Below, one piece after another: positions 27,482 through 37,759 of a stretch of DNA of 38,641 nucleotides. The stretch covers positions 1-38,641 of the forward strand of contig CAJVPI010000254.1 in the NCBI GenBank assembly GCA_910592345.1. Direction: 5' to 3'. The first letter of the stretch is position 1. Every line of letters begins with the position of its first letter. The notes beneath the pieces were generated by a model. The model saw nothing but the letters and a program-made list of their open reading frames with translations, was not told the origin of the DNA and did no database searches. This stretch comes from Paraglomus brasilianum (lineage: Eukaryota). The translations under genes and the position numbers were made by a program.

Positions 27482-27548
27482 CAACGTGATAGGCCCCGAG
27501 CGCAGCAAAATATAAACGCGCACACGTTCTTTTGTTTCCTTCTCCAAC
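27482..27548 (+). promoter_or_regulatory. Conserved TATA-containing promoter/5'UTR block of CRN-like gene 1
   Basis: CAACGTGATAGGCCC...ATATAAACGCGCACACGTTCTTTTGTTTCCTTCTC-CAAC-ATG; 34/35 identical to the inverted copy at 37706-37740. Confidence 0.7.
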
Positions 27549-30080
27549 ATGGACACAAACGAATATAACGCATTAGTACAGAGCAGTTAATCCTGGAGCT
27601 GATGATGGAAAAATCTTCCAAGCATACTTTGACCAGCAAAGACAAGGTAAGCAAGCAATGAATACACGTTTATTGGGAGGATAGTTGAAATGCATTACGA
27701 CATGCGTTGGGGTTGGGACATAGAGCAGAGTCGTTGCAAAGGTTAGGTTATACGTATACTCGTTTGAAAGACAAATAAGCAAGATATGATACATTTGGGT
27801 TAAGTAGAGGAGGAAGAATAATTCGAATGCTGTTATTGGTTTTGTGCTATATTGCAAGAGAGGCAGTTGGGCGTTATTAGCTGGGGCAGAGTAGTGTTGT
27901 CAGTTGGGATTGAGACATAGAGCAGAGTTTGTAGCAAAGGTTAGGTTATATGTGACTTGTTTCAAAGACAAATTAGCAAGGTATAATATGGTTGGGTTGG
28001 GTTAAAGTGAGTAGGAGCAATAGAGGGAGAATAATTGAAATGCATTATGACATGCATTGGGGTTGGAGAGTCATACAATGATTAGGTTTATAACACAAAA
28101 TGCTTATTATTATTGCAAAGTTAACTAATGCTTGTTCACATTACTTCACATCTGATTTGTTTCATCTCTGCTATGACTACTCACTGACATTCTCTTTTTG
28201 TTGTGTCTATGGGCTCATTTGCCTTCCATCCATCCAGCTGCCACTACTGGTGAGTGATTTTTTTTATCTACCACATTCTTTTATTCATGCCACTAATGGC
28301 ATTTAATGTGTTTGAACATCCCAACCTGTGCTGCTTTCACTGCTATTTCATTCTAATTTCCCTTGTTGTTAATTATTTGATCATGCCACCTTATACTTAA
28401 CCTTCAACCTACACATGTTCATGGGTGACCTCTGTTCCATAGTGCTGTGCCACCCATCTATCCTAAACTAACTTCTGTCTTCTATTACTATGTTTGGTCA
28501 GCCTATTACTATGGTGCAAATATCTTTGGCAAAGGCTATGATGACCTCTGTGTGATTTCCAAAGAGCGATTAGACAAGTTTGACAAATGGATGACCCAAA
28601 ACCCAATTGGCCTCCTATGCAGTCCACCACATTCTGGTAAAACAATGCTTGCAGGATTTCTCAAAGAATATTCAACAAAGCAAGGTTGCAGGGTTATAAC
28701 TGTCTTGATGATCAATTTTCTTTCCTATGGAAAAAATCAAAAGGCCTTTAATAACAGCTGGAGAGAAAATGGGGGGGAGATCTCATGGGAGGATTGGCGT
28801 AGGTCTAAGATTCCAACAGATGTCATAATAGATGAGGCCCAGATAATTTACCATCATGGTCTCTTTTTTTTCTGGAATTCACTCAAGTCACTCAAGCAAG
28901 GAATCCTAACTTGCGTGTGCTTCTTCTGAGTATATATGAACCGAGGTTCAATGCCAGCAGCAATCAGGCCACACCAATCGACTTTGAAGAAACCTTGGGA
29001 TTGGATGATTTGCGCATGCTGCGTAGCGAGTTTGAAACATTAACAAACGAATTTATCAATGCATCTATTGACAATCAAGACCCGATAAAGAAAGTTAGCA
29101 TCACCATCCCAACAGAAATACGTAACGCCATCTTCAATGCCACCCGCGGACATGCCGGCCTTGTCAGGATAGTCTTGAATCTCCTGCAGGATGAATATCG
29201 AGATGGTGCTCAAAATGCTTCTAAAATGTTTGAGTATCTGCTCTCTTCTAGATTTCGGAGCACCATTATTGACACACGCGCATTTGCGTGGCATCAGAAC
29301 TTGGAATTTGATGCCAAGGAAATCGAATTTCTACGGAATGCTTTATACCAAATGGACGATCAATCAACCTTCCCTGCCTATTACTATCTTTATTTATCCA
29401 AAGACACCATTACCAAATTCATATACTCTGGGATGATAACTGATGCCGGTAAAAAGTCTAATGGTCGTATGCAATTTGTCGCTCCAATCGTGCGTCTTAT
29501 GTTGCGTCAACGCGTATTCACTTATCACGCTCAGTTGAATAACTTGTCCACAACCAGCAACTTTGATGAATTTTTAAAAATCACAATCCAGCGCATGCAA
29601 CCATCAATATTAAAAAAATCTCTCAGCAATAGTAATAGTAAGAATCATCCCGATTCGAGATTGTTTGAGAAGGCCTGGCAACACGAATGGTACAGGGCTG
29701 CTAGTACTGTCGTGCCACCTCACAGTTCGTTCTCAATTAGTGCTGATGTCAGCAGTATCTTTGGCTCTTCAGAAAAATTAGACTTTTACGTCAATAATGA
29801 ACTCCAGTGGGGAGTAGAACTGCTACGCGAGGGAGAAGGGATGCAGGAACATGCAAACCGTTTTGATTCCGATGGAATATACTCCAAAATTAACTTCAAT
29901 AATTGGGTGATAATAGACTTCCGACACGAATCGAAAAAGCTCCTCCAACCAATGGAAGCCTTTTGGCACGTGTTATACAGCGACGATTTTGGCAAGGTAA
30001 CAGTAAAACGTAAAGGCCATCCTGATATGAAATTGACTTTAGGAGAAGGCGGTGACGCCTTGGGGAAACAGGAACGTTGA
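27549..30080 (+). pseudogene. Crinkler-like NTPase + REase gene, frameshifted
   Basis: Exon 1 is 27549-27646 (TAA at codon 14; the homologous peptide is in another frame). Phase-1 intron 27647-28501 with a CTAAC branch; exon 2 from 28502. Walker A SPPHSGKT, Walker B VIIDEAQ, second frameshift near 28900, ATRGHAGLVR, and a PD-(D/E)xK-like C-terminus EKAWQHEWY...LDFYVNNELQWGVELLREG...IIDFR. Frameshifts could be sequencing errors. Confidence 0.85.
27647..28066 (+). repeat. Repetitive G-rich 5' half of the CRN-like intron
   Basis: Modules GAAATGCATTAYGACATGCRTTGGGGTTGG and ACATAGAGCAGAGT..GCAAAGGTTAGGTTATA..AAAGACAAAT.AGCAAG recur at ~27665-27790, ~27902-27985 and ~28023-28066, and inverted at 37240-37576 and 37820-37914. 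Confidence 0.9.
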
Positions 30081-34938: not shown

Positions 34939-37691
34939 TTATTGTTTACCTTTTTTTTCTCCCCTTGAAGCATATGGACGGAATCTAATAATACTTCTTT
35001 CTTTCCAGATTTCCCCATGATCTGGGTTTGCTGTTCTCCATTCAGGATCAAAAGGAGTGACATAAGAGACCACCATCTGTTTCAGAATTCCCATCACTTG
35101 ATTGTCCAAAAACTTAAAGCAATCCATTCCAAATGAAGACATGCATATTATTTTCTTGTCAAGTTTTTTGGTCTGGCTGGCTTCAGATTTGGTATGCGAA
35201 CGAGTAACAGGTCTTTTCTGCCCTTGATTTTTGAATTTTTCTGGCATATTTGGAGGGTCAACAAACCACTCACCAGTGTACCCAAGTTGCCAATAAATGC
35301 TTAAATACTCTCCACTGTAATGTTCAAGATCTTCACCTGTAAAAACTTGTTCAGGGCACATCTTGGCTGATGAGGGATACTTCTTATCTGCCCTCGTATA
35401 GGGACTGTGGTAATTTTTTACTTGGATAAGAATAAAGGAGTATTGTCCACTTGCAAGCAATATTGGGATCATCAGATCGGCTGCCTGCTGGTTGAGTTTG
35501 AAGATAATTGCAATGCGGCGGTGATAATATTCTTTGAGTTCTTCTTTACTTGGTATGTAATCAACTGAGACAAAATGTGTAAAGGCTACATGGCCATCTG
35601 GAATGTACTTGAGTGCTTGTTTATCATCTGGGTAAAACAGCTGAACAAAGTCTCTAAGAATGATGGGGAAACTAAACCACTTTTTCTTAAGTTTTCTGAC
35701 TGCAAGAATCAGAATGAGTCGTGCTACAAGTTCCCCACATGGACCAGGCTCCACAATACCCTTCTTCAATGAATCATTGAAAGTCTTCAAAACTTTGACC
35801 AAGTTGTCCTTGTCCTCAATCAAGAAGAATCCTGCTTCTGCTAACAATGGCTCTGAGGGGTAACCAACCAATAGATTTTCCCTGTCTTCTGAGATTGCAT
35901 AGCATGTTGCTGCATGTGATGCAACAAGATCAGATGCCAGTGTTGGTTGTGATGAGATCTCCAGGCAGGCCAGCAGAAATATGATAGCAATGCTCACACG
36001 GGTGTTATCAGCATGTGTCAGATCATCAACTCCCCCAAGGAGCTTAATTTTGAAATGTTCTATCAAGTTTCTGAGGCGTCTGGGATTTTTCTTGTTGCTC
36101 TCCAAGTAACTATAGCCTAGTGGTCTTCCTAATCTTGCCAGTGCAAACATTTCTCTATCTTCTGGGTCAGTAATGTCAAGTGGGATTTCACTTTGCTGGA
36201 ATACATCCATGGTAGAGAGCTTGATAAAAGGGGTAAAAAGAATCATACCAGTTTCTTGGTCCACATTCACATTGTCATTTCTGGTAGATGGATCAGCTGC
36301 AGTGGGTGGTGCAAAATTTGCCACTTTGCTAAGTGTATCCAGAAACAACACAAAGAATCCTGTCCATTTACCTTGCCTGCTGATCTGTCGCAGAGCTCTT
36401 CGAAAGAGTCTGAATGGGTTAATGGCATCTTTCCGAGAAGGAAGAAGAGACCAAGCCTCATCAATGCATATAATCATCTTAACGTCTTCTTGCCCATATG
36501 ACTGCCAAGGGAGATTTTGAGACATAATCCCCAACATGCTGTTTTCAGTCACTTGTTTCCAATTCTCTATGTCCCTCAGAACCTCAGCCCAGAAGGAAGG
36601 ACCCCAAAGCCCCATCTGTAGGTCCCACATCTGCTCAGGTGAGTGATTTTTGTTCTTTGTGTAAAATAAATTCATTAACTGAAAAAGAATGTAAACAAGT
36701 CGCCATTCTTCTCCCTGTCGAAGTTGTATGAAAAGGTTTTTTTCCAAAAAGTTTGCAATGATTTCTGTCCGTGGAGGATATCCCGTACTTGCTGCAGGAC
36801 GTAAGCAAAGGTAAAGTGTGGGAATGTCCTTGGCAACCTCTTTGATAAGACGAGATTTGCCATATCCTGAGGCTTGGAACAATGTCCAGTATGGAACATA
36901 TTTAGTTCGATGTTCTGTCCAATATCGGTGCTTAGCATGAAGCTCACGTTTGAAGTCTCCAATGACATTCTCAGCATCAATGTAACTTAAATTAAAAGCC
37001 AGCTCCACTTCATTTTGCTGAAATGGTGAAATATCAGCTTCGACTTTGCTCTGTTCACCTTCTGCTAAAGCCAACACAATAGGTTAGAAAAGAAAAAATG
37101 TAAAGAAATGCAAAAGGAGACAGTTAGTCAATGTTGCAAACAGCATACAAAGGTTGCTCAAATGAATAGACTAAAACAGATATACAGTAATTATAATATG
37201 ATAACATTCATTATGCTCTATTCTATGCCCCTACCAATGCATGTTGTAATGCATTTCCAACTATTCTCCCTCTTACTCTGTTTGACCCCATGGCTACTCT
37301 ACAAACCCCAGTTGCTCCTCTAGTAACCCATAATACCCATTGTAATTGTCTCCTCCAGTTCACCGTTTATGTATAACCTAGCTCTGCTACGATTCAGCAC
37401 TGTATTTTCCTCCATTGCTCCTACTCAAACGTATTATATCTTGCTAATTTGTCTTTGAAACGAGTTACATATAACCTAACCTTTGCTACGAACTCTGCTC
37501 TATGTCCCAACCCCAACGCATGTCACAATGCATTTCAACTATCCTCCCAATAAACGTGTATTCATTGCTTGCTTACCTGGTTGCTCCAAGTACGCCTTAA
37601 TGATGTCACCATCCGTGGCATTTCTGTTCTTCTTTACATATGAACCGATAAATAAATCAGGAATATCGTCTAAGGTAAGTGGCGGGTCCAT
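34939..37691 (-). CDS. Crinkler-like NTPase + REase protein, 746 aa, 2 exons, intact
   Basis: Exon 1 37691-37577 (MDPPLTLDDIPDLFIGSYVKKNRNATDGDIIKAYLEQP), phase-1 intron 37576-37065, exon 2 37064-34939. Walker A QASGYGKS, Walker B IICIDEA, YPSEPLLAEA, GELVARLIL and REase-like ADLMIPI...FILIQVKN. No LFLAK/ubiquitin-like header and no signal peptide. Confidence 0.88.
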
Positions 37692-37759
37692 GTTGTCAGT
37701 GTTATGAGAAGGAAATAAAAGAACGTGTGCGCGTTTATATCCATGGGCATATCACGTTG
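37692..37759 (-). promoter_or_regulatory. Conserved TATA-containing promoter/5'UTR block of CRN-like gene 2
   Basis: Minus strand CAACGTGATATGCCC..ATATAAACGCGCACACGTTCTTTTATTTCCTTCTC...CAAC-ATG-GAC, as at 27482-27554. Confidence 0.7.

Follow-up and report, generated by a model that had tools for sequence, protein, structure and literature searches.

How do two genes whose proteins have little in common come to share a promoter-like region, a start-codon context and the beginning of an intron? The question is raised by a 38,641-nucleotide (nt) stretch of DNA from the arbuscular mycorrhizal fungus Paraglomus brasilianum, contig CAJVPI010000254.1 (the window in what follows), in which a first-pass annotation had described genes A and B as two nucleoside triphosphatase-restriction endonuclease (NTPase-REase) bodies of Crinkler type plugged behind one standard expression cassette. 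Our findings indicate that the shared unit is a multi-copy cassette whose conserved parts are non-coding and whose first exon is hypervariable rather than a standard head. The distribution of its heads and bodies, compared at the sequence level, makes it probable that ectopic recombination, acting through the conserved arms of this phase-1 cassette, has reassorted them.

The similarities first reported between the two genes were confirmed. The promoter-like blocks at 27510-27544 and 37740-37706 are identical at 34 of 35 positions, and both starts, at 27549 in gene A and 37691 in gene B, lie in the context CAAC-ATG-GAC. The first 151 nt of the introns, first described as differing at about ten positions, have eight mismatches and two gaps (142 of 150 aligned positions agree), with nt 1-50 identical. 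The intron-start pattern matches three times in the window and never in 100 shuffles. The first exon had been counted as part of the shared cassette, and here the picture changes: A and B have an exon-1 DNA identity of 0.58, compared with 0.92 over intron nt 39-150, so the common part consists of two arms flanking a variable exon. The two copies first noticed are real, but the window holds four in all, two of them decayed. Copy 1, on the forward strand, has its promoter-like or 5' untranslated arm at 27460-27548, with the blocks ACGTGATA and ATATAAACGCGCACACGTTC, an arm also present in metagenome copies; copy 2, on the reverse strand, has its arm at 37692-37811, where likeness to other copies ends about 235 nt upstream of the donor. 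From its position, we infer that the conserved upstream arm acts as a promoter. Copy 3 (about 37800-37960, reverse strand) is a rearranged remnant with a donor at 37914 that lies in tandem upstream of gene B and has no body of its own. Copy 4 (12226-12440, reverse strand) is a decayed orphan with a header-like exon from 12395 and a lost splice donor; it matches the header hidden Markov model (HMM) at E 0.014 and five other loci by BLASTN (E 3e-12 to 2e-6), and no NTPase was found downstream of it.

Gene B is intact. Its first exon (37577-37691, reverse strand; 115 nt, phase 1) encodes a 38-amino-acid (aa) header and is followed by a 512-nt phase-1 intron with the conserved start (37065-37576) and by a 2126-nt second exon (34939-37064) that encodes a STAND/AAA+-like NTPase and a predicted PD-(D/E)xK nuclease. 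Together the exons make 746 codons with a single terminal stop. The public P. brasilianum model P0131 is 100% identical to exon 2, and homologues occur in Funneliformis, Geosiphon, Rhizophagus and Paraglomus. Walker A residues G68 and K69 are kept in 40 of 40 homologues, as is E202 of Walker B, with D201 kept in 39. The structure model (predicted local distance difference test, pLDDT, 81) has its best fold matches in ORC, Avs3 and PAB2304 (Z 8.4-9.0, root-mean-square deviation 4.6-5.8); Foldseek for B gave no match at E<=0.001, and a PDB sequence search nothing useful. In the C-terminal part, E444 (39 of 40 homologues), D529 (40 of 40), Q547 (35 of 40) and K549 (37 of 40) accompany a predicted alpha-beta-beta-beta-alpha-beta core, motifs and predicted fold that would fit a PD-(D/E)xK nuclease. 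Pfam, PADLOC and fold searches, the last for B with the predicted nuclease domain within the whole model, returned no nuclease match for A or B.

Gene A is broken. Its header-coding exon 1 (27549-27646, forward strand) is 98 nt long and has an in-frame stop at codon 14, so that it does not end in phase 1 from its ATG; the claim that both introns are phase 1 therefore holds for B and fails for A. The 3' part of this exon still matches the header HMM (E 2e-4). In intron 1 (27647-28237) the first 38 nt are near-invariant; shared blocks then form a mosaic as far as about nt 420, and the remainder is copy-specific. The body had been read as exon 2, but a predicted 12-nt phase 1-1 linker micro-exon (28238-28249), with counterparts in other loci, and a second intron precede it. 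The body itself (28502-30080), a P-loop NTPase with a predicted REase, carries a frame break near 28890-28930. Walker A and Walker B motifs are seen, with a weak Pfam match to AAA_22 (E 0.006); homologues P0054-P0056 share 46-48% identity, and metagenome locus L014 and Ambispora protein P0128 are related. An E..D..E pattern is conserved in all four sequences compared; the structure model of the C-terminal part of A is poor (pLDDT 54), and a Foldseek search with it was uninformative. Walker motifs and fold matches place the bodies among P-loop NTPases of STAND/AAA+ type; the bodies of A and B are nevertheless as dissimilar as first supposed: BLASTP finds no similarity between them (best E 0.85), and a profile comparison gives no match (probability 0.4%).

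The cassette extends well beyond this window. One scan of metagenome contigs with an exact intron-start pattern gave loci L001-L014, of which 12 are genuine copies with arms and a header-like exon; L004 and L010, which have neither promoter arm nor header, were dropped as chance matches. Likeness among copies begins fairly sharply about 235 nt upstream of the donor and ends 40-420 nt inside the intron, within which the blocks differ in order and number. An intact phase-1 header exon of 94-130 nt is present in nine of 15 copies (the 12 loci and three in the window), and the header peptide, of 31-44 aa, follows the pattern F..Y...(H/N)P.A....I...Y. When the header HMM was run against 1.84 billion proteins it found 63 matches, 16 of which continue directly into cassette intron sequence; header and intron are thus tied together by a search in which the intron was no part of the query. 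The named species that carry it are P. brasilianum, P. occultum, Ambispora leptoticha, Geosiphon pyriformis and Funneliformis caledonium, and a Geosiphon gene model contains the intron blocks at E 6e-13 (none of 20 shuffles reached E 0.01). In DNA run X2 the summed contig depth was 12.2 for the body of gene B, 865-2,839 for the promoter arm and 6,543-14,182 for the intron start (37458-37585). The intron start thus stands at several hundred times the depth of the body. Because contig depth is no copy number and was uneven in X1, where apparently unique stretches stand at about 30-120, we read these values loosely as tens to hundreds of copies; runs X1-X4 may derive from the source of the window itself.

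What stands behind the cassette is diverse. Eight loci extend past the intron. Six of them have a Walker A motif, L009 starts like B, weakly (E 0.001), and nothing was recognised in L007. The body is of B type in L008 (E 4e-22) and of A type in L014 (E 6e-8), and L001, L003, L006 and L012 match neither type nor one another at E<0.01. By sequence, the cassette stands before at least five P-loop types, the types being labels drawn from Walker A motifs and phmmer, with the grouping of L001 and P0090 weak. Among predicted gene models there are further bodies: that of P0066 is no NTPase, P0090 has a third NTPase and P0125 a WD40 propeller. Head and body are joined in several copies by linker micro-exons, short multiples of three nucleotides with a final G. 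Those of 12-21 nt occur in L005, L006 and L013, and by eye in L001 and L014; the script behind these counts missed the two by-eye cases and made spurious matches inside the L008 open reading frame (ORF) and at the acceptor of gene B. B-type bodies also occur behind other heads, namely a Pfam Crinkler domain (PF20147; P0045, E 6e-15) and a SAM domain (P0024, E 0.003, under the cut-off), and the former places B bodies among Crinkler (CR) proteins in a broad sense.

Heads and bodies are mixed in both directions, and with the many copies and diverse bodies this supports, in part, the modular shuffling first proposed. Similar headers sit on different bodies: the header of gene B agrees at 28 of 32 residues with that of P0066 from the same species, whose body is unrelated, and the header of L008 agrees at 28 of 32 with that of Ambispora P0128, the bodies being B-type and A-type. 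L006 carries the L008 header type on a third body (the two headers agree at 21 of 29), and the headers of L003 and P0090 agree at 25 of 32. Conversely, identical bodies carry different headers. Records P0020, P0136, P0141, P0142 and P0139 have a common 677-aa body (676-677 of 677 identities); three have full, clearly different headers, a fourth has 16 aa of a header end and the fifth only three residues. The headers of P0020, P0136 and P0142 have only 7-12 residues in common locally. All the heads change over at one and the same glycine, as does a Geosiphon protein with a SAM head and 84% body identity. In the four of these records that come from JGI, the ORF is unbroken and takes up all but about 170-230 nt of its contig; they are therefore likely to be spliced transcripts. 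Across 55 pairs from 11 copies, exon identity and intron identity are uncorrelated (rho 0.01, p 0.92). The conserved intron had been proposed as the exchange point; sharing does end inside it, but the first exon also appears to be exchanged, between the arms.

These observations suggest a dispersed 5' module, made of a promoter-like arm from which transcription would begin, a variable header exon and a conserved phase-1 intron start. A crossover within shared intron blocks would place a new body behind an existing head, and gene conversion with its tract anchored in the two arms would exchange the header exon alone. With an intronic junction, and with heads, linker micro-exons and bodies all in phase 1, new joins would be in frame and coding homology would not be needed. 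The orphan and decayed copies could then be understood as donors and by-products of such exchange. The products of intact genes would probably be intracellular, ATP-regulated conflict nucleases, the nuclease activity being predicted from sequence, with endobacteria, viruses or foreign nuclei as possible targets, or they could be selfish. None of ten headers matched the Pfam Crinkler family (PF20147) at E up to 5, or any other Pfam family, and the ORFs of A and B gave no PF20147 match either. The maximum 10-residue hydropathy across 14 headers is 1.22, with no signal peptide apparent, and an ESM Atlas search with one member of the header family gave no usable feature match. The term effector, used in the first-pass annotation, loses its footing here: no signal peptide being apparent, a role in intracellular conflict is likelier than plant delivery, which nothing supports.

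Several observations weigh against this account. The predicted gene B splice joint, 37577-37064, is absent from every run examined, and P0131 takes the same acceptor but a donor at 37609; we prefer 37576 for B because it is the family-wide donor. Six of the 15 copies are truncated, frame-broken or phase 0, L001 being phase 0 and in frame with its body. Intron conservation in L001-L014 was partly built in by the search pattern, and the body pieces at these loci are short (47-241 aa), which weakens the description of them as unrelated. Head-body linkage is partial, the body differing in 13 of the 26 header pairs that are at least 55% alike against 182 of 253 among all pairs, and the header tree, on 37 columns, is mostly unresolved, with one of 20 branches well supported. 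The NCBI head-body pairs are predicted models, two of which (P0117 and P0069) include intron sequence. P0136 starts with 31 residues copied from its own body and is thus partly chimeric. No DNA-level recombination event has been traced within one genome.

The alternative that survives best, though we consider it unlikely, is a selfish, non-autonomous mobile 5' element that would land at random sites, bring with it a promoter, a first exon and a strong donor, and trap any in-frame acceptor downstream; nuclease bodies would then be frequent captures or mobile partners rather than the outcome of maintained shuffling. The high depth of the cassette, its fairly sharp 5' limit, the orphan copies at 12226-12440 and 37800-37960, the header on a WD40 propeller in P0125 and the Geosiphon model with the same intron blocks would all suit such an element. 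A DNA transposon or miniature inverted-repeat transposable element (MITE) should leave terminal inverted repeats or a common 3' end. The window has no terminal inverted repeats around A or B and no 3' end common to them beyond an unrelated 190-nt element, and the 3' limit among copies varies from about 40 to 420 nt. Moreover, seven of the eight loci that reach past the intron have an NTPase-type body, a bias too strong for random capture.

Joining at the level of RNA, in which cassette transcripts are trans-spliced to one another or tandem cassettes supply alternative first exons so that one body gene serves several headers, is slightly less credible still. It would account for the four transcript-like JGI records with an essentially identical body and different heads, for the orphan heads and for the second donor 338 nt upstream of that of gene B on the same strand. 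Those records may, however, derive from different strains and from either DNA or RNA, and one of them is the partly chimeric P0136. Mosaic introns indicate exchange at the DNA level regardless, and the intron start has no structured RNA signal: a hidden RNA gene there was rejected on zero Rfam matches, fold z-scores of +0.6 to -0.9 in all four cases and no compensatory change in any of 31 base pairs. RNA-type contigs of relatives support the acceptor of gene B only. The X16 contig, from a relative and RNA by guess, matches B from 37066 after six unlike letters, as expected if another exon ending in AG joined there, and the X15 contig begins at 37063. In the X17 contig, likewise taken for RNA by guess, a header-like end is followed by 21 further nt and the body, to judge from 30 of its 83 loose letters, and an RNA-library contig of X18 holds an unspliced cassette with a different exon end. 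RNA runs with no cover of exon 1 are uninformative, since the headers of relatives differ.

We regard as improbable the view that A, B and their kin are old paralogues from header-bearing ancestors in which gene conversion, or constraint on splicing or regulation, has kept promoter and intron start alike and no bodies were exchanged. The near-invariant intron start that reaches Geosiphon, and the header subfamilies that keep to B-type bodies, are what it predicts, but it cannot yield 88%-identical headers on dissimilar bodies or identical bodies with different headers. An assembly or annotation artefact, with the intron repeat causing contig mis-joins and gene finders attaching the nearest header, is very improbable. 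The contigs are built from short reads and have a high-copy repeat at the junction, and some gene models are demonstrably wrong, which would favour it. Artefacts could scramble head-body pairing but would not set the arms before five NTPase types, X1 and X2 contigs run from the body of gene B into the intron with no differences, independent soil contigs show the same architecture with in-frame phase-1 joins, and the unbroken head-body ORFs have no repeat at the junction.

Reassortment through cassette arms can be set beside known systems. The Crinkler (CRN or CR) proteins of oomycetes and fungi pair an N-terminal header, alpha-helical in some reports, with an NTPase and REase C-terminus, and alike heads can precede unrelated tails (PMC5289972, PMC3726527, PMC6131194). 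The Phytophthora breakpoint is a coding HVLVVVP motif (PMC3726527), and most CRN-like proteins of R. irregularis have no signal peptide (PMC6131194). The resemblance lies in a header before an NTPase and predicted REase, and in the B body family behind the Crinkler head of P0045. The header in the window differs in having no Ubl domain, no LxLFLAK, DWL or HVLVxxP motif and no apparent signal peptide, and the arrangement differs in its intronic breakpoint, variable head and conserved non-coding arms. The header peptide may already have been catalogued by Zhang et al. 2016. The closest published mechanism that we found is the cone snail toxi-driver exon, in which a shared 5' exon and phase-1 first intron recruit coding exons by ectopic intron recombination; there it is the 5' untranslated region and the signal exon that are conserved, the peptides produced are secreted and transposons supply the homology (PMC13542836). 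The two have in common a shared 5' module, a phase-1 first intron and unrelated coding exons. In our case the exon is hypervariable, and the homology would be the start of the cassette's own intron.

In cassette gene conversion, as at Borrelia vlsE, trypanosome VSG and Neisseria pilE/pilS, a variable segment between conserved arms is replaced from non-expressed copies. The variable exon between arms is similar, and orphan copies such as those in the window could be donors. In contrast to those systems, the copies here are dispersed, many have bodies of their own, no single expression site is evident, and the product would be a cytoplasmic head rather than a surface antigen. A bolder version of our reading, which we hold only tentatively, is a combinatorial diversifier in early-branching mycorrhizal fungi: a genome-wide stock of tens to hundreds of variable header exons between conserved arms would be swapped onto ATPase-nuclease bodies, by cassette conversion or trans-splicing, so fast that identical bodies differ in head within a species.

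Swapping of heads and bodies of the Crinkler type is known from protein sequences. For its DNA mechanism outside oomycetes, the 38-nt invariant intron start with its promoter arm offers a concrete, searchable candidate site of exchange, in which the usual picture is reversed: variation lies in the head and conservation in the non-coding arms. Through such a site new genes could arise in arbuscular mycorrhizal fungi, which are largely clonal, and its motif is a handle for finding and correcting an unannotated gene family that is mis-spliced in public models. A search of open-licence papers found no description of this cassette, and PMC9453076 has no occurrence of the words Crinkler, effector or NTPase.

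Other observations concern the cassette family and its carriers. P0002 of Funneliformis caledonium is 87% identical to the body of gene B, most other Glomeromycotina homologues being near 40%; together with headers in Ambispora that are nearly identical, this may point to horizontal transfer or contamination between mycorrhizal fungi. The header occurs as a tandem double in P0005, P0002, P0016, P0142, P0085 and P0086 (Geosiphon, Funneliformis and other records). Most remaining matches of the header HMM are long multi-repeat proteins of bacterial or phage appearance; P0058, P0062, P0065, P0068 and others score with the profile, have a Y..HP.(L/A)T..(Q/E)I repeat and are possibly DNA-binding relatives of the header. 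A search of viral contigs for the cassette family gave no matches. Upstream of the cassette copy in L002, three long ORF pieces (L002:810-3492, forward strand) look by eye like a MULE/SWIM transposase and have no Pfam match.

The window is also rich in repeats. Two 190-nt elements, at 30664-30853 and 34342-34531, are 99% identical and MITE-like, each having terminal inverted repeats of 28 nt. A further element, about 840 nt long and immediately upstream of gene A, is enclosed by related ends at 26415-26446 and 27226-27257. Between A and B, a repeat at 32350-34520 contains a decayed transposase-like frame, and its depth is very high, reaching 34,000 in X1. At 7824-8977, long inverted repeats (127 nt at 95% and 72 nt at 90%) surround about 700-870 nt, likely a non-autonomous element. 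An exon of a NIF-family phosphatase (PF03031, E 9e-12) at 15722-16438 on the forward strand belongs to an ordinary host gene.

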